64,000 bases of DNA from Octopus vulgaris (Eukaryota), in the NCBI GenBank assembly GCA_951406725.2, contig OX597829.1:27466001-27530000 (forward strand), given 5' to 3'. A program made the translations under genes and the position numbers. Positions within the stretch are counted from its first letter, which is position 1. Each line of letters begins with the position of its first letter. Below, piece after piece: positions 12,893-40,029 of the stretch. The notes under the pieces were generated by a model, which searched no databases, had not been told where the DNA came from, and saw nothing but the letters and a program-made list of their open reading frames with translations.

Positions 12893-14447
12893 ACTCTCGA
12901 ACCACTCCTACACAAACTGGAGGCGTTGAGAGGCATCCCGCGTGACATAGGATGTGGGAGATGCGTGCCGGCATATGCCAACGACGTCACCGTAGTGGTA
13001 TAATCGGCACCGCTCTCAGAGACTACGAGACGGTTTCAGGAGTATCAATTAACCAGGAAAAATCAGTGGGACGAGGTAACGAGCAGGGTGACTATTCTCA
13101 CCCAGCAATGGGCCGAGAGAAAGATGTTCCTGAAATGTCGAGAAGAGGTGAGTAACGCGTATATCCCGTCTGTCATCTACTATCGCTTGACCATCGTGCC
13201 TTGTCCTGGTCACCGTCTGATTATGTTGGAAGGTATACTCTTCCGCTTCTTGTGGAAGGAACGTATCCCGATGGTCAGGCGGTCTATCTGCTGTTAACAC
13301 CCGCCTGGTGACCTGGGCACGCCGTGGTTGATGATGTGTAGACATGCGCTGAGGCTACGACACCTCCAGTGCTTCCTTGGCGGTGAACAGGTGTGATCAC
13401 TGTTTGCCAGACACGTATTTCCGCAGCTAGTTTCTTTAACGGAGCTGCCGTCCTGGGTAAAACAGACACCGAGAGGGAGCATTTGGAAAGTGGAATGTCT
13501 TCAAGCACTCACAACTCTCAGCTAATTGGACACTGCGATAGGTGGTACGTCCACTTTAGCTTTTTATAGAGGTTTAGTGGAGGGAAAGTGTTACGATGTT
13601 CTTGGGCATCGAAGATGAACAGCTGGCTGCTCTTTTCCGGAGAACTTTCGACCCGGGACCGATGGATAATTTCCAAAAATCTCTGGCCTGGCAGTGCTAC
13701 CGGGGAGCTTTGCCTGTTCGAGATAAACTTTAGGGAGTGCCGTCAGCCAAGTATGTCCGAGATGCGCGCAGGACGACAAGACGGTCCTGTATGCATTCAT
13801 CCAGTGCCCAAGCATTGCTGACCTGTGGGTTTATGTCGAACACCTGCTGTCGCGTGTGAGACGGGCCGATGGTCAACCCGCCACCTTCCGAAGATCGCCC
13901 CGCCACCTTCCTTTAACCAGGAAGGAAAGGCTGTGTCTATATGCCTGGTGGCCATGGCGAAAGAGGTTGTATGATGGACGAGATTGAAGGGGCTGAAGAC
14001 AAACACTTTTCTCTTTGGCCAATCCCTGATCAACTTTTTCAAGTTCCACTTGAAAAAGAAAATAAGGGCAGAGGGAAATGTTGTCTTCTAGCCAGTTGGC
14101 TAGAAAGGTGGATGAAAGTGGTGAGAATGGTGCGAGTGAACAGGCCTGACCTGAGCATACGTCTGTAGTTGACAAAAAAAAAAACGAAAGGAAAAAAAGG
14201 CACTTACCCCAAAAGTCAGGCTACCCGTGGTTTTTTATGGGGTTTTTCCATGCGCAACCCTCGAACGTTTCCTCCCTATTGAGAATTACACATTGTTGAT
14301 TTTTAAAAAAATTGTTAGCCTTGTTTACAAGCAAAACCTTCACAACAACACACACTCACACAGATACACACAAACATTCTTTTGTTTCGTCCTGTGCTGT
14401 CCATAATGTTTTTCTTAATGTAAACCTTTGTGGTTAATAAAGAAATC
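12893..14447 (+). mobile_element. Old 5'-truncated Tx1-like LINE (3' half of ORF2 plus 3' UTR)
   Basis: Frameshifted translation LEPLLHKL...INQEKSVG...SVIYYRLTIVPCP...FLWK...MMCRHALRL is colinear with ORF2 at 31260-32679. Ends cctttgtggttaataaagaaat, like the young element. Confidence 0.9.
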
Positions 14448-24439: not shown

Positions 24440-24910
24440 ATTCTGATTGGTCAACAAGTTGATGACGTCTAGCTCTGCTAGAATGGACAGGATACAAACA
24501 GGGGACAGTCATTAGTCAGAATATTGATGACGTCCTTTTCTGCTTGAATAGTCACCTAACAAGTACAGACAGGGGGCAGATCTAATGTAGCGATAAGTCG
24601 TGATTGGGCAGAATCTGGATAACGTCCCGCTCTGCTTGACTAACGAAGCGACTGGTCAAAACAGGAAACAAACAAGAGGCAGATATAATGCAGCGATTGG
24701 TCAAAATAATGATGATGTCCCGTTCTACTTGACTAACGAAGCGACTGGTCAAAACAGGAAACAAACAAGAGGGAGTTATAATGCAGTGATTGGTCAAAAT
24801 AATGATGACGTCCCGTTCTACTTGATTAAAGCCACCTAACGAAACGATTGGTCAAAACATTGATGACGTCACGCTACGCTAGATTGACCACCTAACAGGC
24901 ATTATAAAAC
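24440..24910. repeat. ~93-bp tandem repeat rich in CCAAT and TGACGTC motifs, followed by TATAAAA
   Basis: tgactaacgaagcgactggtcaaaacaggaaacaaacaagagg at ~24637 and ~24730. GATTGG and GATGACGTC recur. TATAAAA at ~24903. Confidence 0.75.
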
Positions 24911-25452
24911 CGAGCATTTCACAAAAACTCACTAGAACCACCCAGCGAACTTCCACCATGGGTCATCACAATTGCTTAAGGTAAAAATGAATTCCTCGCT
25001 CTTTCGGAAACATCAATCTTCTGTATTGACCGCTTTCCACCACTTTGATCTGTTTTTTGTATTGAATACGTATCGCCACCGTGGGCCACTGCATCGAACA
25101 CTTTGAACATATACTTCAAACTATATATCAACTATACATGAACTATATATCAACTATACATGAACTCTAAGATGTCTGACTCCGTTGTGTATTATAAATG
25201 AATTTCTTGTGTTTGACGGCATGAGCTGTCTTTTTTTATATATAACTTTTTTTGATAAGGTTCATTTCAGGAACTGAAACATGTTATAATGTATATATAA
25301 AAATTAAAAATTGTATAATACAGCAGCATTTTCGAACTTCATTTTTTACAAATATATATATCCAAATATATATATGTCCAAGGTGCCATACAGTGGGACT
25401 GAACCCGGAACCATGTGGTTGGAAAGTAAGCTTTTTACCGACCACATACGCC

Positions 25453-25483
<31 letters not shown>

Positions 25484-25939
25484 TGTATGTATGTATGTAT
25501 GTATGTATGTATGTATGTATGTATGTATGTATGGATGGATGGATGGATGGATGGATGGATGTTGAGGTTTGTGTGTGTGTATTTCCTTTCATTCAAGCGT
25601 TCTTGCCTAGAGCGAGCCCATAGCAATATCATATTTTCTCCACTATTTCAGTATTACGTGTTAAAAGTGAAACAAAAACATTTCTCTATTTTATGTCAGA
25701 TACTTTCACTTTAACAATAAAAACAATAATAACAATTGAATTATATGTAGTAAGTAATAATTAAAATCAAACTAAAGTATAATATAATCGTAACATAACA
25801 AAAGTAAAAATAGCAATTGGTATAAAATTGCATCAATGACTTGAACTTGAATAAGTGGTTTCACATGAATGGGAATAAATTAAAAATAAAATTAGCGTGC
25901 AGAAATGGAATAGTCCAGATGGATAATAAAAAATTAAAT

Positions 25940-25986
25940 TAAAGAAAAGACTATTGTCTATAAAGTATACAATGTAGAGAAAAAAG
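25940..25986 (+). pseudogene. 5' piece of decayed Tx1-type ORF1 (host element C)
   Basis: aaa gaa aag act att gtc tat aaa gta tac aat gta gag aaa aaa = KEKTIVYKVYNVEKK. Aligns to RRTIKYKVF (A) and RRIIYKTF (B), just N-terminal to the part that resumes at 32928. Confidence 0.55.
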
Positions 25987-27662
25987 GTCGCGTTTTTTTG
26001 CGCTCTGTAAAATTCGGTTAAAAAAGAAAAAACAACAAAAAGTGAATTGTGGTTGCGGAATTGGAACGTCGGTTGGTGCGGTTTCGCGTCGCACTGGTTC
26101 TGTGCGTCGCACGTTTTCTGTTCGGGAGGCCGTTTTTCGGTCTGAGGCGACTATGAGCCGCCTCTACCAAACGGATGAGATGGAAGGAGAAATTTCTCTG
26201 AAAATTCGTCGACATCTGAGGAGGAGTTGGCGGTGAAAAAAATGGAAAGCACCTATGCAGGTATAACGAAGAAGTCAACAGAAAAAGAGATAGACCTGGC
26301 TAAGTTGACGGACTTCCAGGAGTTCATGAAGGAGGAGGAGAACGGAGAGGTTGAGCTGTTGCCTCTAGCAGGGCGCGGAGACTGGTTCCATCGTAGAACC
26401 ATTAAATATAAAGTATTTATGAATGGAGGTAGAAAAATGGAAGTGATTAACATGGAAGCAATTGAAGAGGCTTTCAAACGGACAGGAGAAGAAATTGTGT
26501 ACATGACAAAAGGATTAGAATATGGAACCATAACGGTACAATTTAAAAGTGAGAAAGCAGCCAGGAATATAGCAGCCAAGGTGGTGAGTACAGAAAAGTT
26601 TTACTTGTTCCCCTCGTATTTGAATAGAAGGACCACCAGAATTAGGGTGGAAGGAATACCTCCACACCTAGAGGGCGAATTAATAACGGCTGCGGTTATC
26701 AAAGGAAATGAAGATAAAGTGGACATCCTCCACGCCATTATGAAATATGAAGGCGTGAGAGGTGCCACACTAGTAATGAACATACAGACGGAGGCGGAAG
26801 TTATAGAAAAGCTTACGGACAGTATAAAAACTGGAAATATTATTATGAGAGTGTGGGTGGAGGGTAGGGCGCCCAGGTGCTACAAGTGTGGCCTGAGGGG
26901 TCACATAAGAGCCTACTGCCCTCCCCCACTAAAGGAAAAAGAAAAGGAAATCGTCGCGGAAGCCCCAAAAGAGGAAGAAACCAAAGAGAACCAAAGGGAA
27001 AAAGAAACGACAGAAGAAGAGGAGATGCAACAAGAGTGGGAAGAAGGAAGAAAAAAGAGAAAAAGAAAGAAAAAGAAAAACTGTGCGAAGCCCCAACCCA
27101 CCCCAACACCACCCGCACCCTCTGAATCCCACCCTTCCCCTGCAGACAGTGAACCCACCCGCTCCCCTCCAACAAGAAAACAAAAGAAAAATAACAATAC
27201 AGACAGACAAGAGTTTGAAAACGAACCCAGGCCGAACATTTATATTGTGACTGAACAGAAAGAGGTTGAAAGGGTAATGGAGGAGTATGAATGGTATGAA
27301 ATGGATGGGACCAGATATGCAGTGCTGGAAAAGAAGAATATAGATGAGTTTGTGTTGAGGTGTGAAAGGGAGAATTGGGAGGTGAAAGATACAAGAATGA
27401 GCGATGAATTCGTGGAATATATGGAGGACAGTTTCGGAGTAAGAATGGATATGGATGGTCTTCGTATTGGGAATGAACATTCAGGTGACAGTGAAAACAA
27501 AAGGACAGGTAAGTGATGCTGGCGGAGGGGGCCGTTAGCATCGCTTTCATATTATCATTTTTTCATTTTCATTTGCTCATAAATTTAATCATATTGTTCT
27601 ATGTCCCCCATGTTTTGTTATGTCCGCCATTCTTCGTAGCCCCTGGTGGGTAATAAAGAAAT
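25987..27662 (+). mobile_element. ORF1-only non-autonomous Tx1/L1-derived element (half-L1-like), element A
   Basis: GC-richer 5' UTR, one intact ORF1 and a ~145-bp 3' UTR ending gcccctggtgggtaataaagaaat. No endonuclease or RT sequence. The 5' boundary is approximate. Confidence 0.75.
26242..27516 (+). CDS. ORF1p (gag-like nucleic-acid-binding protein): RRM-like region, CCHC zinc knuckle, charged/Pro-rich linker, C-terminal domain
   Basis: Uninterrupted ~424-aa ORF from ATG 26242 (track 26227). Knuckle VEGRAPRCYKCGLRGHIRAYC. TTRIRVEGIPP motif typical of Tx1/L1-clade ORF1. Confidence 0.88.
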   Translation: MESTYAGITKKSTEKEIDLAKLTDFQEFMKEEENGEVELLPLAGRGDWFHRRTIKYKVFMNGGRKMEVINMEAIEEAFKRTGEEIVYMTKGLEYGTITVQFKSEKAARNIAAKVVSTEKFYLFPSYLNRRTTRIRVEGIPPHLEGELITAAVIKGNEDKVDILHAIMKYEGVRGATLVMNIQTEAEVIEKLTDSIKTGNIIMRVWVEGRAPRCYKCGLRGHIRAYCPPPLKEKEKEIVAEAPKEEETKENQREKETTEEEEMQQEWEEGRKKRKRKKKKNCAKPQPTPTPPAPSESHPSPADSEPTRSPPTRKQKKNNNTDRQEFENEPRPNIYIVTEQKEVERVMEEYEWYEMDGTRYAVLEKKNIDEFVLRCERENWEVKDTRMSDEFVEYMEDSFGVRMDMDGLRIGNEHSGDSENKRTGK

Positions 27663-27675
27663 AACATGGAGGAAA
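27663..27675 (+). repeat. Target-site duplication, left copy (AACATGGAGGAAA)
   Basis: Identical 13-mer at 32925-32937. Confidence 0.85.
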
Positions 27676-27893
27676 TCAATTTATTGCGTTATTAGTAAGT
27701 TGATATATATTTTTGCTCTCATACTACTTATCTCTGTTATTATATACTGTTGGTCTACCTTTTTTTGTCCATTGTTGTCTAACGGACGAAGTCAACCTTC
27801 GCGCGAAGACTTCGCGTTGGTGTTCCCCCCTCAGTGGGGGAAAACTACAATCAATTTAGATTACCAAAGGTTTGTTAAAGCCATTTGTTCAAA

Positions 27894-29277
27894 ATGGAGT
27901 CCCCCATCACTTATTCGCCCGTGACGAGCGAGGAGGAATACCCGGCGTTGTCGCCAAGTAAAAAAGAGGCGTTGTCGCCAAGAAAAAAAGAGGCGCTGTC
28001 GCCGAAGAAAAAAGAGGCGGCGTCGCCCAAGAAAATGGTAAAACCAGTACCAGCATCAACTCCAGCAAAAAAATTCGCTGAAGTGGCTGGGAAGAAAATT
28101 AAAAAAATTAACGTGGACAACCTGGGAAAACATGCGGACTGTGTGTCAAAAGAGGGCACGGAAGTAACCGTGGCTTCAAACGCCAAAATACAAGGAGGAT
28201 ATTTCGAATAGGAGAATAATCTATAAGACATTCAGTATAACAAACAGAGCAATCCAAAAAATAGAGGAAAAAAAGATTGAAAACTGCTTAAAGCCAATAA
28301 TGGATAAAATTACGTATATCAATCGAGGGAAGAAATACGGCACAGTGGAGGTGAGATTCACGTCAGAGGAGGTAGCAAAGAAGCTATCCATGGAACCCAT
28401 AAAAGCAGAGGATATTGTTCTCCTACCCCTGTATAAAGGCAAGAGAACTTCCAAGATCACTATGAACAACATCCCGCCAGAAGCGGATGCCGAAGTCCTA
28501 GTGGCAGCAGTTATGGTAGGCCTGGAGGAAAAAATAAACATCCTCCAGGCCACCGTAGAAGAAGAAGAATTCTGGAAAGGGCAAAAGATAATAATAGCCA
28601 TACAAGCAGAAGTACAAACCCTGGAAGAGATCCCAGAGACTCTTAGGATAAGCGAAGATGAAAGAGTCACAGTCTTCGTAGAGGGCAGAAAGCCGAGGTG
28701 CTTCGGCTGCGGTAAGAAGGGGCATGTAAGGGCGGAATGCCAGCCCCAACCCAAACCGCAGGAAGCACCTAAGCCAAAAGGAAAAGAAGACAATGTGTCA
28801 TCAGAAGCAGCGTCAGACGGCCCAGATGGGAAGACTGAAGGTGTGGAGGTGATGGTAACAGCAGAACCAGCGGCGGAGAAAAAAAAGAGCGAGGAAAAGA
28901 TAAATGAGGAGGGGTGGGCAAAAATTATCGGAAAAAAAAAAGAAAAACGGAAACCACCCCTCCCAGAGTAATTTTAAAAAAGAAAAAAGAGTCAATAAAC
29001 TCATATATGGCCGTAAAAGCATCAAATAGCAGACTCGGAAACGTGTTGGCAGCCATGGCCAATGTGAAGAGAGTAGAGAGAAAAAAAAAATGACTTTGTA
29101 ATTTACAAAATAGACCGGAAGGATTACGGGCGGATAAAGTCAGATTTCTTCCATGACGTAGGCCCACTTAGGTTGGATGTAACATCTCCACATATATTCG
29201 AGGGCCTACGTCAGACTCCCCCACGAGGCCCAGAAAAAGAGAAGGAAGAAGAAGAAAAAACCGAACCACTGATATAA
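27894..29277 (+). CDS. ORF1p of LINE B (3 apparent frameshifts)
   Basis: Track ORFs 27885-28211 and 28300-28971 join via a shift near 28208 (..YFE/RRIIYKTF). Knuckle CFGCGKKGHVRAEC. Reading continues through shifts in A-runs near 28940 and 29090 to TAA at 29275-29277. Confidence 0.8.
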
Positions 29278-29286
29278 AGGTAAGTA

Positions 29287-32200
29287 ATGGATTACATTTA
29301 TGTTGGTTGTTTAAATGTGCGCGGCCTGGGAGCAGGCTGGAAGCAAGGTCGCTTCCTGCATGATATCAGGTCGCGTAATTTAGATGTTATTGTTGCTACA
29401 GAAACCCGGCTAGAGGGGCCAAGAGGTCTACTCCCGCTGTTTGACGGCTACGAGAGTTTTTCTCTCCTGGCAGTCCTACAGGCGGGAGTGGGGTGTTGGT
29501 CCTATTAAAAAGAAACCGGGTTTCTGAGAAAAAGTTAATTTTTGCAGATCCAGAAGGTAGGCTGGTCGTCATGGATTTGACGTTCAGTAATGGTAAAGTT
29601 ATCAGACTGGTTGCAATTTACGCACCCAACCATACAGGGCAAAGTGATTATTTTCGTGAACTAGAAAACTTTCTTGGTACTTCGCATTCATTAGTGGTGC
29701 TAGGAGACTTTAACACAATTTGCAAAGCGGATGTAGATTATGTTGGCTCGTGTCCAGATAGAAAAGGCAACAGTGGCTTCATGGAACTGCTAAGCCGCTT
29801 TGAGCTAGCAGATCCTTATAGGCTGGAATTTCCGAACGCTCCATTGTGGACATGGTCAAACAGCGACGGATCTTCCAGGTCGTATCTAGATAGAATACTA
29901 ATTAGAAAAGTAGACAGTAAAATAGCTAAGTGTCCACAGTTTTACCCGATCAGCTACAGTGATCATAAAATGGTCACTTGTAAGCTTGACATAGATAAGG
30001 TTAAAAATAGAGGATCCGGTTACTGGAAACTTAATACGTCCCTTTTGGCGATTAAGGAGTACAAAGACCGGATTAGGAATATAATTCAGAGGGCACTATC
30101 TGGTACCATCATTAATAACAAATGGTGGTACGCCCTCAAACGAGCCATCAAGTTTGAGTCTATTAGATATAGCATAGGAGTAGTGGCTAGAGAGGCTAGA
30201 AGGGAAACTACTCTAGTTAAGGAATTAGAGGAAGCCATGAAAACTGGCTCTGCGGCTCAGGTGGCGGCCAAGAGACTGGTGTTAAACCAGCACCTCGAGG
30301 CCAAACACATGGGCTGCATTGTCAGGGCTAGAATCCGTCATATGGGATGTGAAGGAATCAACGCCGTGAGATGGGCCCGAGTGGTGGAAGCTCAGCATGG
30401 TAACGATGCCACGATTCGATCTTTGACGAACCAACAAGGTGAGTTGATAAACGAACCCGAGGAGATGTGTGAGGCCTTTCAGGAGCACTTCGCTCAGCTT
30501 TTCGGTGAGTGCGGCGGACTGGATAGGAGGAGGGCCTTTACGGACCTACTCGACGGTCTGCCGCGCTTATCGGGGCGAGATGCGGAGGGCTGTGAAGGGC
30601 CAATCACGCCTGAGGAGGTGGTTGAGGCAATGGCGGACTGCGGCGCGGGCAAGGCGCCGGGTTTGGATGGTCTACCCTATGAGTTATATAAGAGTATGCC
30701 AGACTTGTTCGGGCACCTACTGGCGGAGGTCTACGCGAACTGGCAGCAGAACGGGCTTATACCCAGATCTGTGCGCCGGGGAGTAGTGACTCTCGTCAGA
30801 AAGGACCCGAGCAAGGGGAGTGCATTGATAATTTCAGGCCCATCACTCTGCTAAACACAGAGTTGAAGATTTTGGCCAAAGTGTTATCGAAAAGATTGGC
30901 GCGTGTCGCGGATGGTCTGATCGGAGGGGCACAGACATGTGCCGTTCCGGGCAGATCCATTCAGGATAATCTCCATCTAATGCGGTACACTATAGAGGGG
31001 TTTAATAGTGATTCTGGCAAGGGTGGGGCACTGGTCCATTTAGACCAATCTAAAGCTTTTGATAGGGTCGACCATCGTTACCTGGTATCTGCCCTGGCAC
31101 AGTTCGGGCTGAGCCTTGGATTCCTCAGGTGGATTATCGAAATTTATGATAACATCGACTCGGTAGTTCGGGTGAACGGCTTCTTGTCGAAGCCGTTCAA
31201 AATCAAACGCTCGGTTCGTCAAGGGTGTCCGCTCTCCCCGCTTTTGTACGTGATGGCTCTTGAGCCATTACTGCGAAAACTGAGCGGCATCCCGAGACAG
31301 CCAGGTAATGGAAAATCAGTGTCAGCGTACGCGGATGACATCACCATCATCGTAACCGAAATGGACCACCTATGTAAAGTAGGCAAGGCCATAGAGGTGT
31401 ACGAGACGGTGACAGGAGCAAAAGTTAATCGCGAAAAGTCAGTCGGCTTGCAACTCGGCACCTGGAGAGGCAAGTCGATGCCTCCTGACAGCGTCGTGGG
31501 ACGTTGGACGGAGGGTCCGATTAAACTGCTAGGGGTCTGGTTCGGTCCAGACCTCCAAATAGAGAAGAATTGGGGCGAGGTAACGAGCAAGGTGGCTGCA
31601 GTAGCCAAGACCTGGTCTTGGCGGTGGCTATCCCTGAAAGGGAGGGCGGAGGTGGCCAATGTGTTTATCGCATCGGTTATCACCTACCGCCTTTCCGTCG
31701 TTCCTTGCCCTGATTCGTGGTTGATCAAGTTGGAAAGACAGCTCTTCTACTTCTTGTGGAAGGGCGGGAAACCACTTGTGAAACGCTCTACTTGCTGTCA
31801 ACAACCGTTAAAGGGGGGCTAGGGATGCCTTGGCTGATGATGCGCAGACATGCGCTGAGGTTAAGACATCTGTGGCTCTACCTGGATGGTGAACGGGTGT
31901 GGTCTTCGCTAGCAAAACTGATGTTTCCCAAGTTCACTAGTTTCGGTGGATGGGAAACCTGGCTGAGTCGTAGATCGAAACTTGGTACTTGGTACACGGA
32001 GTGTCGCAAGGCTCTCCTGCTATTCCGTCGCTCGGGCAACGCCTGCGGTGGGGGTTCCACCACTTTCTTCTATAGAGGGTTGGTAGAGGCGGAATGTGAA
32101 GATACCTTGGGGGAAACCCTAGGTCTCGACGATAATCAGCTGGCCAGTCTGTTCCGACGTACGTTCGAGCCAAGGACACTGGACAACTTCCAGAAGTCTC

Positions 32201-32679
32201 TGGCATGGCAATGCTACAGAGGAGCTCTACCTGTTCGGGATAAACTCGCAAGGCACGGTGGCCAAGACAGTCCGATATGTCCAAGATGCGGGCGGGATAG
32301 GGAAACCGTCCCGCACGCGATTGTTCATTGTCCGGACGTGTCTGAGGTGTGGGTTTATGCCGAACACCTGTTGTCAGGTACACGAAGAGTACAGCTGTCG
32401 ACTGAGTCGATTACAAAAATTGACCCACCGGATTTCCTCGTGAATGAAGGTAAGTTTCGTTTTCTCGTTGTAGTAGCAATCGCGAAAGAGGTGATATGGA
32501 AGACGAGAATGAAAGGTTTACAGTCAGGCAAGTTCATCTCCGGCCCTGGTTTGATGAATTATTTCATCTTTCACCTGAAAAGGAAGATAGGGCTGGAGAG
32601 AATATGCCTGACTAGGAGAGCGTATGAAGAACGATGGATGGATGTAGCACGGAAGTTGCGAATGAAAGTTACAACATAA
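29287..32679 (+). CDS. ORF2p: AP endonuclease + reverse transcriptase + C-terminal zinc-binding domain (3 apparent frameshifts)
   Basis: APE motifs LNVRGL, IYAPN, GDFN, SYLDRI, SDH. RT motifs KAPGLDGLP, NFRPITLLN, LDQSKAFDRV, VRQGCPLSP, YADD. C-terminal CPRC...HAIVHC. Shifts near 29460, 30820 and 31815. Confidence 0.93.
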
Positions 32680-32924
32680 ATGTAATACCAAGTGCAACCA
32701 AAAGTATCAGTGGGGAGGCGGGGCTCGTGGGGTCCGAGCTAAACCCGCACCCACTCCACCCGTAATGTCTTCCGGTCTGTCCTATCACTCGATTTTTGTC
32801 CATTTATTGTTATTCATGAAAATTTTTAAACCCGATTTATTGTAAAAACCCATTCGTTTGTCTGACCCCATCATCAGAATGTATTGTCCCATCTGTGTTC
32901 GCCCCTTGTGGGTAATAATAAAAC

Positions 32925-32937
32925 AACATGGAGGAAA
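32925..32937 (+). repeat. Target-site duplication, right copy (AACATGGAGGAAA)
   Basis: Identical to 27663-27675. Confidence 0.85.
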
Positions 32938-33222
32938 GCACCTTCGAAAAGTGTTTTGGTGCGACTATGAAAGATATCTAATCAGAGGCGGTAAATTCGC
33001 CACAATAGAAGCAAGGTTCGAGTCAATGGAGCGTGCAAGGGAGTACTCGACTCGAACTTGCAAAGTGGAAATATTTTATTTTTACCTTACGTAGGACGTC
33101 CCAGAAAAATTTTTAAAATGCCCCCTCCCCAGAAGTAGAGGTAGGCTGGATTGTAGCCACACTTCTATACAAGAGGGAGGACAAGATACAATTGATCGAA
33201 ATTACAAGAGACGGGCTAACAA
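32928..33222 (+). pseudogene. 3' piece of decayed Tx1-type ORF1 (host element C)
   Basis: Frameshifted translation MEESTFEKCFGATMKDI/YLIRGGKFATIEARFES...PPEVEVGWIVATLLYKREDKIQLIE. Aligns to B IEEKKIENCLKPIMDKITYINRGKKYGTVEVRFTS...PPEADAEVLVAAVMVGLEEKINIL. Confidence 0.8.
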
Positions 33223-33367
33223 TTCCAGTCTGTTATATATTTTGAGTATTGTTATCACTAGCGATATCAAGATATAACTTTGTATTTTGTATTTTATGTG
33301 TAGATGTATATATATATAGATGTACATGTAATATGTAGATATATATATATACACATATATACATGCA

Positions 33368-33406
33368 CTAGCACTATGACCCGGCAACGACGTGTCTTTA
33401 ATGCTA

Positions 33407-33450
<44 letters not shown>

Positions 33451-33762
33451 ACTTACTACATATAATTCAATTGTTATTATTGTTTTTATTGTTAAAGTGA
33501 AAGTATCTGACATAAAATAGAGAAATGTTTTTGTTTCACTTTTAACACGTAATACTGAAATAGTGGAGAAAATATGATATTGCTATGGGCTCGCTCTAGG
33601 CAAGAAGTTGAACATTTTTTTTTTGCCCATGGAACTACATGGACCCTAAGTAAGGCATGTGTAAAATTTGAATGAAATTGGTGGTGTAGTTCTCAAGTTT
33701 TAGGGAAACACACAGACAGACAGACAGACAGACACATATTCTCAGTTTTATATATATAAAGA
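33368..33762 (-). mobile_element. Non-autonomous Helitron-like element
   Basis: - strand A|TCTTTATATATATAAAA 5' end with (TCTG)n. 3' hairpin gtcgttgccgggtc then CTAG|T. Confidence 0.7.
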
Positions 33763-33981
33763 TATATATACATATATATTTAAAACAAGCAAATTAGATA
33801 GTTAGAAAACCGTTATATGACATATATTCGACGGGCTTCTTTCAGTTTCCGTCTTACCAAATTCACTCCCAAGGCTTTGGTCGAAGTGATAGTAAAAGAC
33901 ACTTGTCCAAGGTGCCATACAGTGGGACTGAACCCGGAACCATGTGGTTGGAAAGTAAGCTTTTTACCGACCACATACGCC

Positions 33982-33984
<3 letters not shown>

Positions 33985-34012
<28 letters not shown>

Positions 34013-34285
34013 TGTATGTATGTATGTATGTATGTATGTATGTATGTATGTATGTATGTATGTATGTATGTATGGATGGATGGATGGATGGATGGATGGA
34101 TGGATGGATGGATGGATGGATGGATGGATGGATGGATGGATGGATGGATGGATGGATGGATGGATGGATGGATGGATGGATGGATGGATGGATGGATGGA
34201 TGGATGGATGGATGGATGGATGGATGGATGGATGGATGGATGGATGGATGGATGGATGGATGGATGGATGGATGGATGGATGGAT
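33985..34285. repeat. (TATG)n-(GGAT)n microsatellite
   Basis: Direct reading. Confidence 0.95.
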
Positions 34286-34961
34286 GTTGAGGTTTGTGTG
34301 TGTGTATTTCCTTTCATTCAAGCGTGTTGCGTAGATACTCATTGTGAACGCGCCGTTAATTCGTCCCTTCCCTACAAAGACTCGACTTTGCACGTTAGAC
34401 AGGTGGTAGCAACATCTCTATACTTCAGTACCAAGGTAATAACTGAAGTCCAATGTCCAGAAATGTATTACAGACTTCCTACGGCTGTGATGGCGGACGA
34501 TAACTGCAGCAGCTTGAAAAAACAATTCAGTCGTGCTGGTCTTCTTTGACCTCTTACAGTGAGCATTCTGGGATACGATGTGAAACAGTACCTTGTACAT
34601 AAAACCATATTTCTAGAAGAACTCGAATAACAGAAGTAGAATTAAAAATAGGCTTTAAGAATACTATTTATTGAAGTTCAGTTGTCTGTAACTCAGAATA
34701 GCTGTCTGTGAAGGTTTTTCAGCTTTGATGAAAGTATATATATATATATATATATATATAGTACACACACACACACGCACATACACGCATATATGTATAT
34801 ATGTATAGAATATATATGTATATTTTCTTTTCTCTGTATATCATAACTAGTATTACAATTCAGTATAGAAGTTCCTTATCAACTATACAGGAAGTAGACT
34901 GGAATATGATAATCTACGAAGTACTCTAAATGAAACAATAGCAGTCATACATCTATATATA

Positions 34962-37603: not shown

Positions 37604-38150
37604 TGCGTGTGTGTATGTGTGCGTGTGTGCGTATGTGCGTGTGTGCATGTGTGCGTGCGCGCGCGTGTGTGTGTACGTATACATATCTATACAGATAGCT
37701 ATATGTGTTTGAGTATATGTTAGTATACATATGTGTGTACGCACGAGGCAATGACTAATAGTATTTTAATTAAGTTCAGGCGTGTTTCAGTATTATTAAA
37801 ACCTCAGTTTAAGCAAAACCTTTACCATACTTGTCAAAGTAAACTAATTGGGGAATAAAACCCCACTGATTGGCATAGAAAAATCCATTTGTTTATTAAT
37901 CCAATATCTCAGAGACCTCATCTGCATGAAAAAATAGCAAAGATGATGTTAACATATTTAGTCCTGTAAACATTTAAAACCTAATCAAAAATAATTATTA
38001 GAGTATTAAGAACTAAATTTTTTCTAATCCTCAGCTATTGACCGTAAGTATAATGTTCAAACCCATTTTTCTTTCCTTTTTCATAAAAATTTTTTTTACT
38101 TTTTGTAAAAATTCACCTAAATCGATTCTACATTATTTTTTGCTTATCTT

Positions 38151-38750
38151 ATTTCTTTACTGCCCACAAGGGGCTATACACAGAGGGAACAAACAAGGAC
38201 AGTCAAATGGATTAAGTCGATTACATCGACCACAGTGCGTGAACTGGTACTTATTTAATCGACCCCGAAAGGATGAAAGGCAAAGTCGATCTCGGCGCAA
38301 TTTGAACTCAGAACGTGACGGCAGACGAAATACCTATTTCTTAACTACCCACAAGGGGCTAAACACAGAGAGGACAAACAAGGACAGTCAAATGGATTAA
38401 GTCGATTACATCGACCACAGTGCGTGAACTGGTACTTATTTAATCGACCCCGAAAGGATGAAAGGCAAAGTCGATCTCGGCGCAATTTGAACTCAGAACG
38501 TGACGGCAGACGAAATACCTATTTCTTAACTACCCACAAGGGGCTAAACACAGAGAGGACAGACAAGGACAGACAAACGGATTAAGTTGATCATATCGAC
38601 CCCAGTGCGTAACTGGTACTTATTTAATCGACCCCGAAAGGATGAAAGGCAAAGTCGACCTCGGCGGAATTTGAACTCAGAACGTAGCGGCAGACGAAAT
38701 ACCGCTAAGCATTTCGCCCGGCGTACTAGCGTTTCTGCCAGCTCATCGCC
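38151..38750 (-). mobile_element. S2 SINE with triplicated 185-bp 3' unit
   Basis: Unit starts at ~38151, 38336 and 38521. A single head lies at 38750. TSD ttttgcttatctta on both sides. Confidence 0.9.
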
Positions 38751-38948
38751 TTTTGCTTATCTTATGTATCGCATGGAATACATAGAACATACTTCTTGAA
38801 GTCTATGCATCATATATGACACACATTACCAATTTATATTCAGCCACAAGAGAAAATATATGAAACAAAAGCTAACAAGCATGGACGTTTAGGAGAAACA
38901 TGAAAATTCTTTGGTCAGGAAAAGGGTTAACGGTATATCTTCGGTAAC

Positions 38949-39182
38949 CAAGGCGGCGAGCTGGCAGAATCGTTAGCACGTCGGGCGAAATGCTTAGCGG
39001 TATTTCGGCTGCCGTTACGTTGTGAGTTCAAATTCCGCCGAGGTCGACTTTGCCTTTCATCCTTTCGGGATCGATAAATTAAGTACCAGTTACGCACTGG
39101 GGTCGATGTAATCGACTTAATACCTATGTCTGTCCTTGTTTGTCCCCTCTGTGTTTAGCCCCTTGTGGGTAATAAAGAAATA
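38949..39182 (+). mobile_element. Full-length S2 SINE (tRNA-like head, Meta-like core, Tx1-like tail)
   Basis: ggcggcgagctggcagaatcg...gagttcaaattcc...gcctttcatcctttcgggatcgataaa...gccccttgtgggtaataaagaaata. 17-bp TSD ggtatatcttcggtaac. Confidence 0.92.
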
Positions 39183-40029
39183 GGTATATCTTCGGTAACT
39201 GAAATTATTATGCAATTGAACTTTAGTATTCAATTAACCGATTCCTCATAGTAGACTATAAACTGCGACATTTCATTATATTGTCAGTAAAATATTGCTA
39301 CATATATGTATGAATTTATATAATAAAAGCAGTATAAAAATGGAGTTTTATGTACAGTACTGATATTTTTTTTTATCTTCTCCCATCGACATGAAAATCC
39401 CTTTTTCCCTTTAATTTTTTTTCTTTCCTCTTTCATTCTTTCAGTTACAGTGTAACAGATTTTTTTGTCATTTGGTTGGCAACTGTTATTTCCTATTTGC
39501 TTACCCCTAGAAAGCATGAAAAACGGCTAATATTTTCTTTAAAGTTTGCTTTAGTTACATTTATTCAAACCCCAACGAATCCTTCTCAACACATGGCTAT
39601 GATACACCTCCACTACTTCTGCTCGTGATCAGAGATGCACATATTGTCGGCCACTAAGGAACATGCTCAACTGGTTAAGGTCAAGCAACTGACAAGCAAA
39701 CCTATGGTATTGAGCAGAATATTTGCTATAATGATATTTCTGTTTCAGAAACCCAAAACTAGATCTATCTAAAATGTAATGGAAAATAGGTAAATTTCAA
39801 AACATTGATGTTCAGATGACAAAAGCAAATTTTGAGGGGAATAGTAGTCATTCCCTTTGATTTCTACATGGAAGCAAGTAGGATATAACACTTACTGACC
39901 AAAGACAAAAAGAAATAAAAAATTTATTACATGGTGTTATCCAAGATAAAAACAAGGTTAGTAAATTTCGAGAACGACTATCCAGTTATTTTCTTAATTA
40001 TTCCATATCTTAATTTCTTAATTATTCCA

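Follow-up and report, generated by a model that had tools for sequence, protein, structure and literature searches.

An ORF1-only unit adjoining a two-ORF LINE

The window, that is, the whole stretch of 64,000 nucleotides of Octopus vulgaris DNA that we analyzed, holds two retrotransposon units, A and B, which lie end to end between the two halves of a Helitron-like repeat (Table 1).

Table 1 Features of the locus, with positions counted from the first nucleotide of the window
Feature	Position	Strand	Remarks
Upstream half of target repeat (Helitron-like, here 5′-truncated)	25600..25986	+	TATA-like TATAAAG at 25959; 8 nt ATTTGAAC of the empty site absent
Unit A, ORF1-only non-autonomous non-LTR retrotransposon (family F1)	25987..27663	+	About 1.68 kb; head GTCGCG-T7; 148-nt 3′ UTR
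ORF1 of unit A	26153..27516	+	454 aa in intact sisters; here frameshifted at 26185; predicted tandem RRM core, CCHC knuckle, charged low-complexity region
Shared 3′ tail of unit A	27639..27663	+	GCCCC-(T/A/G)3-4-GGGTAATAA...; AATAAA at 27652; no poly(A)
Unit B, two-ORF Tx1-like LINE	27664..32925	+	ORF1 and APE-RT-zinc finger ORF2 (1131 aa in intact sisters); broken here; head ACATGGAGGAAA target-like
Downstream half of target repeat	32926..33407	+	Begins ACATGGAGGAAAGCAC; decayed ORF1 fragment of the same clade; hairpin and CTAG at end
Second copy of Helitron-like repeat, 5′ part, inverted	33445..33762	-	Makes a 162-nt perfect inverted repeat with 25600-25761

In a preliminary description made from the letters alone, unit A was a unit of about 1.7 kb with an intact ORF1 of about 424 amino acids. 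The size and the one long frame with its CCHC knuckle stand, but the gene is not intact. The long frame of this copy (26242-27516, 424 aa) begins at an internal ATG, and the ORF1 of the family starts at the ATG at 26153 and encodes 454 aa. The G run at 26185 is one base shorter here than in sister copies and in the contigs of four out of four sequencing runs, and because of this missing base the 424-aa frame is the downstream remainder of the 454-aa ORF1; the base may have been lost by a true mutation or by a slip in the assembly. Contigs of four runs presumed to be RNA cover both A and B, a coverage that speaks neither for nor against expression. A full ORF of 453-454 aa is present in 14 of 39 A copies, and the other 25, this copy included, are without it, which counts against the explanation that we favor below.

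The ORF1 of A carries the motif CxxCxxxGHxxxxC, whose match to the Pfam zf-CCHC model is under the cut-off (E 0.07). As had been noted, neither APE nor RT was found within unit A by domain search and sequence comparison of the unit. Two likenesses to B that had been read from the letters were also confirmed: the ORF1 of A is homologous to that of B and very divergent from it (33% identity over 253 aligned positions, E 1e-39), and the 3′ ends of A (GCCCCTGGTGGGTAATAAAGAAATA) and B (GCCCCTTGTGGGTAATAATAAAACA) match at 87.5% over 40 nt. Splice-donor-like AG/GTAAGT sequences were observed at 27506-27520, at the ORF1 stop, and at 29278-29289, just ahead of the ATG of B ORF2; the one at the ORF1 stop is conserved in A and in the families F4, F0 and F7 described below, and not in F3, F5 and F6.

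Unit B as candidate autonomous partner

Unit B, 5.26 kb long, directly adjoins the 3′ end of A and is frameshifted at this locus in both ORF1 and ORF2. It shows two features of the Tx1 clade, namely two ORFs with an APE-RT-zinc finger ORF2 and a preference for a target sequence. The nearest match to its RT is an Argonauta protein (64%), and the sole clade-named match among the 120 listed is "Transposon TX1 uncharacterized 149 kDa protein" (38%). These matches fit an octopus-type host and a Tx1-like element, an assignment to the clade that they do not prove. At least 150 B-like RT copies are present, many with open frames of 1132 codons; the scoring covered just 150 of 36,070 RT candidates, so an autonomous partner or parent more remote than B may exist.

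The preliminary description also had a TSD of B starting exactly where A ends, and this did not hold. The sequence ACATGGAGGAAA is found at 27664 and at 32926, and its agreement with the target extends over 12 nt only. In 5′-truncated copies the duplications are 15-18 nt long (with 16-bp TSDs in two truncated B copies), and the unit head differs from the canonical sequence behind the unit in 16 of 35 units. Because of the 12-nt match and these head mismatches, we take the repeat around B for the target-like head of B itself rather than for a TSD; that A is a unit separate from B holds by other evidence. Three units of different family share a non-canonical head of 13-17 nt with the next unit, as a true duplication would. 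Unit heads are thus mostly element-borne and target-like, and sometimes duplicated. The target-like heads of B, F5 and F6 (27664-27680; L105, L110, L127) vary chiefly at positions 3-9, and the variants ACATGGAGG, ACATGTCCG, ACATGGCGG, ACATGGCTC and ACATCGAGG are swapped between families; ACATGGCGG resembles a YY1 site.

Other B subfamilies (L143-L147, L149, L152-L154; C27, C22, C30, C58, C3, C24, C2) have a near-identical RT (about 98%) and an ORF1 that is mostly 55-62% identical to that of B, or 90% in L149. They use other targets, and several form B-only tandem arrays with a 5.3-kb period. In these subfamilies, ORF1 and the 5′ end appear to have been swapped with the RT unchanged. At one further locus (L161, C9:119.2 Mb) the open frame that holds a B-like RT runs to 2499 codons, far longer than ORF2, possibly owing to an in-frame nested insertion.

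The insertion site and the shared tail

A, B and several other ORF1-only families have a common insertion point, ^ACATGG, in a Helitron-like repeat of about 1.07 kb. The empty target reads ...GAGAAAAAAG(AAG)ATTTGAAC^ACATGGAGGAAAGCAC, and at the junction of full-length A copies 8 nt of target are missing. Searching the genome with one pattern each, we counted 77 exact empty sites and 108 tail-plus-target junctions, with 0 for the controls; both counts are lower bounds rather than measures of occupancy. The TATA-like TATAAAG of the target lies 30 nt upstream of the CGCG head of A.

Non-autonomous Helitrons are marked by a 5′ TC, a 3′ hairpin followed by CTAG, insertion between A and T, and no TSD. 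The target shows these marks, completely at one locus and at the 3′ end elsewhere too: the empty copy followed from end to end is about 1.07 kb long, begins TCTTTATATATATAAAA, contains a (CTGT)n stretch, and ends in the hairpin and CTAG, between A and T. The insertion site lies inside a decayed ORF1 fragment of the very clade of A and B (tblastn E 2e-10 to 1e-2 at four out of four empty loci). A search of the target against Rfam for known structured RNAs returned just sub-threshold microsatellite matches.

The same tail is carried by a SINE, with 9,737 exact 34-mer matches (GCCCCTTGTGGGTAATAAAGAAATA) dispersed in the genome, and this SINE is likely mobilized by the same enzyme lineage. Because so abundant an element carries the tail too, the shared tail does not tie A to B alone; and because the SINE matches are dispersed, the tail, even together with the B enzyme, does not by itself confer targeting to the Helitron-like repeat. 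Minimum free energy folds of the 3′ ends revealed no common structure. From the shared tail, the shared site and the TSD length, A likely uses the endonuclease and RT (ORF2p) of B in trans.

Unit A belongs to a young family inserted at one site

A DNA search of the octopus's own 2.8 Gb genome recovered at least 34 full-length A copies with 96-100% identity on many contigs (40 of 594 candidates scored), and an ORF2 after the ORF1 was seen in none of the A copies examined. Among the best 30 copies, the 3′ end falls on the identical base and is followed by AACAT in all 30, and the 5′ side is target flank in 11 and the tail of another element in 19. The exact A-type tail, common to A, F4 and F7, occurs 51 times in the genome, with AACAT next in 42. 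Of these 51, all of which we examined, 47 sit at the target or adjoin a sister element, and 4 are elsewhere. These four off-target copies are all 5′-truncated, with a TSD of 15-18 bp in three and of 6-7 bp in one. Full-length A copies carry no individual TSDs. Among 39 near-full copies, 12 stand alone, with a target half on either side, and B comes next after 8.

The retrotransposon family to which unit A belongs is young and multicopy and codes only for ORF1. With its many copies, its defined ends and an ORF1 without ORF2, the family has the makeup of an ORF1-present non-autonomous LINE, and its copies are interstitial, on many contigs and inside the repeat, rather than telomeric as in HeT-A. 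The earlier proposal of a protein-coding non-autonomous family is thus borne out by the multiple copies, by the lack of a continuation into ORF2, by the copies that stand alone and by the purifying selection on ORF1 reported below; none of the three findings named beforehand as refuting it was made. Dispersed copies with the same two ends and their own TSDs had been expected; the copies are indeed multiple and have a fixed 3′ end, but they are site-specific in the Helitron-like repeat and, when full-length, free of TSDs.

ORF1-only families stack in a biased order

We segmented 39 stretches chosen via A together with 40 further occupied sites taken in listing order, which yielded 189 near-full units in nine clusters: F0 (79 units), A (39), B (30), F6 (17), F3 (9), F4 (5), F5 (5), F7 (4) and F8 (1). 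ORF2 is present in B only (30 units), and F0, A and F3-F8 are ORF1-only units of 1.6-1.9 kb with the same tail. At the 40 sites that had not been picked through A, an ORF1-only unit was found in 25, and no B lay within 10 kb in 13.

Neighboring units follow one another unevenly. F0 stands before A 21 times and before another F0 52 times, and A stands before neither F0 nor another A; at variance with this order, one contig of run X1 joins an A tail to a CG-type head. An ACAT-type start follows A in 36 of 39 units, after F0 comes a CG-T-run head in 47 of 79 units and an ACATG start in 10 of 79, and B is nearly always last. Overall, one site serves A, B and at least five further ORF1-only lineages, which stack there head to tail in the biased order F3/F0, A, F5/F6, B, target. 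Such stacking arises because the target site survives each insertion.

As to the side on which arrays grow, the evidence points both ways. Three duplicates of flank sequence inside arrays have local variants in common with their own flank, which argues for insertion in front of an older unit, and the three non-canonical head duplications likewise point to upstream insertion. Two truncated B copies, in contrast, sit downstream of older units. A single internal fragment (C5) is unlike its own flank. A test for F0 heads as TSDs was null (p 1.0), and the ages of F0 and A neighbors showed no difference (p 0.84), dating by private changes having little power.

Two further origins of the adjacent units were considered and rejected. 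Tandem duplication of F0 does not fit adjacent F0 copies, none of which lie within 0.2% of each other (0 of 42), and co-mobilized F0+A dimers do not fit a haplotype correlation between F0 and A that drops from r 0.51 to r 0.00 after centering.

Selection, descent and predicted fold of ORF1

The dN/dS check put forward in the preliminary description gave 0.10-0.14 between ORF1-only families, using the Nei-Gojobori method on a core of 177-179 codons with one representative per family: 0.14 for A/F4 (CI 0.07-0.27), 0.13 for A/F0, 0.11 for F0/F7 and 0.10 for F5/F6. The ratio between B subfamilies was 0.06, and two F0 subfamilies (0.64) were too close to test. These ratios indicate purifying selection on ORF1 among the ORF1-only sister families.

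A, F4, F0 and F7 have a common junction between ORF1 stop and 3′ UTR, AGGTAAGTGATG, with a UTR of 147-154 nt, where B has AGGTAAGTAATG at the start of ORF2. The end of A ORF1, AGGTAAGT-(G/A)ATG, equals the ORF1/ORF2 junction of B, and therefore the A lineage arose by loss of ORF2. Since the junction is common to all four families, one old deletion of ORF2 preceded their split, and the selection on ORF1 continued after that loss. An A-type ORF1 in cis with an RT was found in 0 of 30 near-full B units and in 0 of 20 further RT loci; 18 of the latter have a B-type ORF1 at 55-90% identity and 2 are truncated. An ORF1 tree separates A/F4 with F0/F7, F5 with F6, F3, and the B lineage; it is unrooted and gives no order of origin, and two of its rows are artefacts of an inverted segment in L096.

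Among 421 candidates, no homologue of the A ORF1 core was found at E<=0.001. A single-sequence fold was poor (pLDDT 42), and a model of the core from 16 sequences reached a pLDDT of 84, with tandem RRM proteins as its structural matches (Foldseek E 3e-6; Z 9.2, rmsd 2.5 over 82 residues). On this model, A ORF1 is predicted to be an RNA-binding protein with two RRMs and a CCHC knuckle.

Movement through RNA and signs of editing

Across 30 core copies, A differs by 1.2% and its downstream flank by 6.7%, and in 0 of 435 pairs is the flank distance equal to or smaller than the A distance. The two distances correlate weakly (Mantel r 0.35, p 0.01), which counts against the explanation that we favor. 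One A haplotype was found beside different neighbors. Six of 174 copies, one of them an A copy, carry 12-45 private A>G changes and no T>C changes; these are clustered on the sense strand, with 5′ neighbors mostly A or T, and they make up 23 of the 27 private changes of the edited A copy. Such clusters look as A-to-I editing of RNA would leave them. A flank older than the insert, 5′-truncated copies with TSDs of about 16 bp, and the sense A>G clusters together show that A moved via RNA, the intermediate expected of an ORF1-present non-autonomous LINE. In an array at C14:65.43 Mb (L084), adjacent F0 and A units are both A>G hyper-edited, and a piece of local flank of about 60 nt is duplicated between them.

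A proposed mechanism and its alternatives

We consider it probable that A is a young ORF1-only family which inserts at one site in a Helitron-like repeat, with endonuclease and RT likely supplied by the Tx1-like B through the shared 3′ tail. The family without ORF2 is RNA-borne, with its ORF1 under purifying selection, and enters the same site as B and at least five other ORF1-only lineages, with which it stacks in a biased order. A ORF1p would then package its own RNA, and ORF2p would be supplied by B in trans. The AATAAA of the A tail lies 12 nt ahead of the 3′ junction, and poly(A) cleavage usually occurs 10-30 nt after the signal, so A transcripts would end inside the next sequence. Transcripts that overrun the tail by a few bases in this manner could pair with nicked DNA and thereby pick the neighbor of their source anew, which would generate the order; we put this step somewhat short of an even chance. 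The TATA-like box 30 nt upstream in the target may drive transcription of the first unit of an array. A model for the pairing step, and only that, is offered by SART1Bm and R1Bm of the R1 clade, in which 3′ bases of the RNA were proposed to anneal to the nicked target and so to set the insertion point (PMC7265360).

More tentatively, the ORF1-only families may be Tx1 parasites that make up a self-organizing guild, every family inheriting its slot from the few bases gained when its RNA continues beyond the poly(A) signal and into the downstream neighbor. One enzyme would then serve address-coded families (ACATG for A, CG-T-run heads for F0 and F3, its own head for the SINE), building ordered interstitial arrays at a TATA-primed site which is itself a scrap of retrotransposon ORF1 spread by a Helitron. 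If this were true, a natural APE-type LINE would have its choice of target programmed by RNA.

Instead of RNA-target pairing, family-specific targeting by ORF1 proteins (as with HeT-A ORF1p at telomeres) or successive bursts of families at one site might set the order, a possible if doubtful explanation. It would suit ORF1 lineages that are just 29-42% identical in the core, each conserved, and the slot that every family has of its own. However, the off-target truncated A copies begin mostly at ACA(T), which points to a preference of the nuclease or of the RNA end, and the similar ages of F0 and A neighbors are a poor fit to bursts.

It is rather unlikely that the arrays form in single events, in which RT would start on one RNA (often B) and jump end to end to co-packaged ORF1-only RNAs, or would copy read-through multimers, so that order would reflect junction compatibility. 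B is nearly always last, the junctions are precise and lack TSDs, two adjacent units of one array are both edited, and copies are mosaics, all as such events would have it, and end-to-end jumping for R2 is cited by title in the reference list of PMC4494074. Against this stand the A copies found alone (12 of 39), the private divergences of neighbors, which are uncorrelated (rho 0.06, n 90), the F0-A haplotype correlation that vanishes on centering, and the adjacent F0 copies, which are not near-identical. This alternative alters the mechanism of the arrays and leaves the identity of A as it is.

We regard it as improbable that a recent internal deletion produced A from an autonomous Tx1 family, so far unseen, whose ORF1 is of the A type; the selection signal would then have been earned while the family was autonomous, and A would now move as an inert, SINE-like RNA. 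The match of the A ORF1 end to the B ORF1/ORF2 junction does derive the lineage from ORF2 loss, divergent RT families lie outside the 150 of 36,070 candidates scored, and many A copies are frameshifted; yet four ORF1-only families with one deletion junction have diverged to a dS of 0.2-2 with dN/dS of 0.11-0.14, and an A-type ORF1 occurs in 0 of 50 RT-bearing copies. Multiplication of a single A insertion by rolling-circle Helitron transposition or segmental duplication is highly improbable and largely refuted: nearly all A copies do lie in the same repeat with the same junctions, A and flank distances correlate weakly, and C17_1097400 shows a duplicated flank plus unit, but the flanks are five times more divergent than A, with no pair among the 435 fitting co-duplication, the same A haplotype has different neighbors, and the off-target truncated copies with TSDs and the edited copies require an RNA step.

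Relation to known systems

A works like HAL1 and HeT-A and shares the testable features of their category; it belongs to neither family proper and is part of an array system that is site-specific and comprises several families. The ORF1-present non-autonomous LINEs named in the literature include HAL1, HeT-A and Ag-Sponge (PMC5786205, PMC5753468), and the list given in PMC5786205 covers L1, Jockey and CR1, with no Tx1-derived case in it. As described there, HAL1 and Ag-Sponge resemble A in consisting of a 5′ part, ORF1 and a 3′ tail with no ORF2, in having arisen by internal deletion, and in an ORF1p that is thought to aid transposition (PMC5753468, PMC5786205). They derive from the L1 and CR1 clades, whereas A is site-specific and arrayed, has an RRM-CCHC ORF1 and lacks poly(A); its ORF1, with the CCHC knuckle, is related to that of B and does not have the mammalian L1 origin of HAL1 proper.

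According to PMC13534243, Drosophila telomeres commonly carry head-to-tail arrays of ORF1-only families; there, as is likely in the A system, several families lean on the ORF2 of related families and spawn new ORF1-only families. HeT-A and the telomeric Jockey elements occupy chromosome ends and have a telomere role, whereas the octopus system is Tx1-like and interstitial, at more than 100 sites inside a transposon. Tx1 families that target DNA transposons are described in PMC4494074, namely Xenopus Tx1 in Tx1D, and crocodilian Tx1-Mar and SINEU-3 in Mariner-N4_AMi. Similarly to A and B, these show sequence-specific insertion in a non-autonomous DNA transposon, sequential tandem insertions and a non-autonomous partner, with a 16-nt TSD for SINEU-3. 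Compared with these elements as portrayed there (PMC4494074), the target here is Helitron-like, insertion is into a scrap of ORF1 captured from the same clade, the partners code for a protein, different families mix within the arrays in a biased order, and no exact TSDs flank the full-length units.

An octopus repeat annotation reports 13 active L1-Tx1 families and, in its main text, mentions neither ORF1 nor nesting (PMC13282606); its repeat library, or Repbase, may already contain the consensus sequences of these families. The ingredients are individually known from HAL1, HeT-A and Tx1 in DNA transposons. Their combination, and Tx1-derived ORF1-only families or such arrays in Helitrons, were not found in the literature searched, which held few subscription journals and Repbase reports.

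With the octopus families, the range of ORF1-only non-autonomous LINEs comes to include a Tx1-like lineage, in which several families are long-lived and under selection. They also provide a non-telomeric parallel to the HeT-A arrays, by which the link between site-specific stacking and ORF2 loss becomes testable outside flies. Young families that share one enzyme and occupy different slots would allow a direct test of whether the nuclease, ORF1p or the RNA end decides where a LINE inserts, and of the reason for keeping ORF1p in cis. The edited copies, in turn, would be a record of ADAR-type activity on retrotransposon RNA in the octopus germ line.

Other repeats in the window

The surroundings of the two units, at 25375-25761 and 33445-34335, are rearranged, with a 162-nt perfect inverted repeat (25600-25761 and 33445-33606) and a near-identical direct repeat (25375-25611 and 33904-34335). 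The target copy has lost its 5′ end at this locus. We considered the inverted repeat as the termini of a DNA transposon around A and B and rejected this, as it is a second, inverted copy of the 5′ part of the target and is absent at other loci. Upstream of the target, at 24445-24890, lies a repeat with a period of 58-93 nt and the motifs GATTGGTCAA and GATGACGTC.

The SINE with the shared tail is present on both strands. The plus-strand copy at 38949-39182 is flanked by a 17-bp TSD (38932-38948 and 39183-39199), and the minus-strand copies at 38150-38750 form a head-to-tail array with a 185-nt period, in which each tail is joined to a fixed point in the SINE head. At 13067-13851, a diverged RT-like stretch, 64% identical to the RT region of B, represents an older related LINE fragment.
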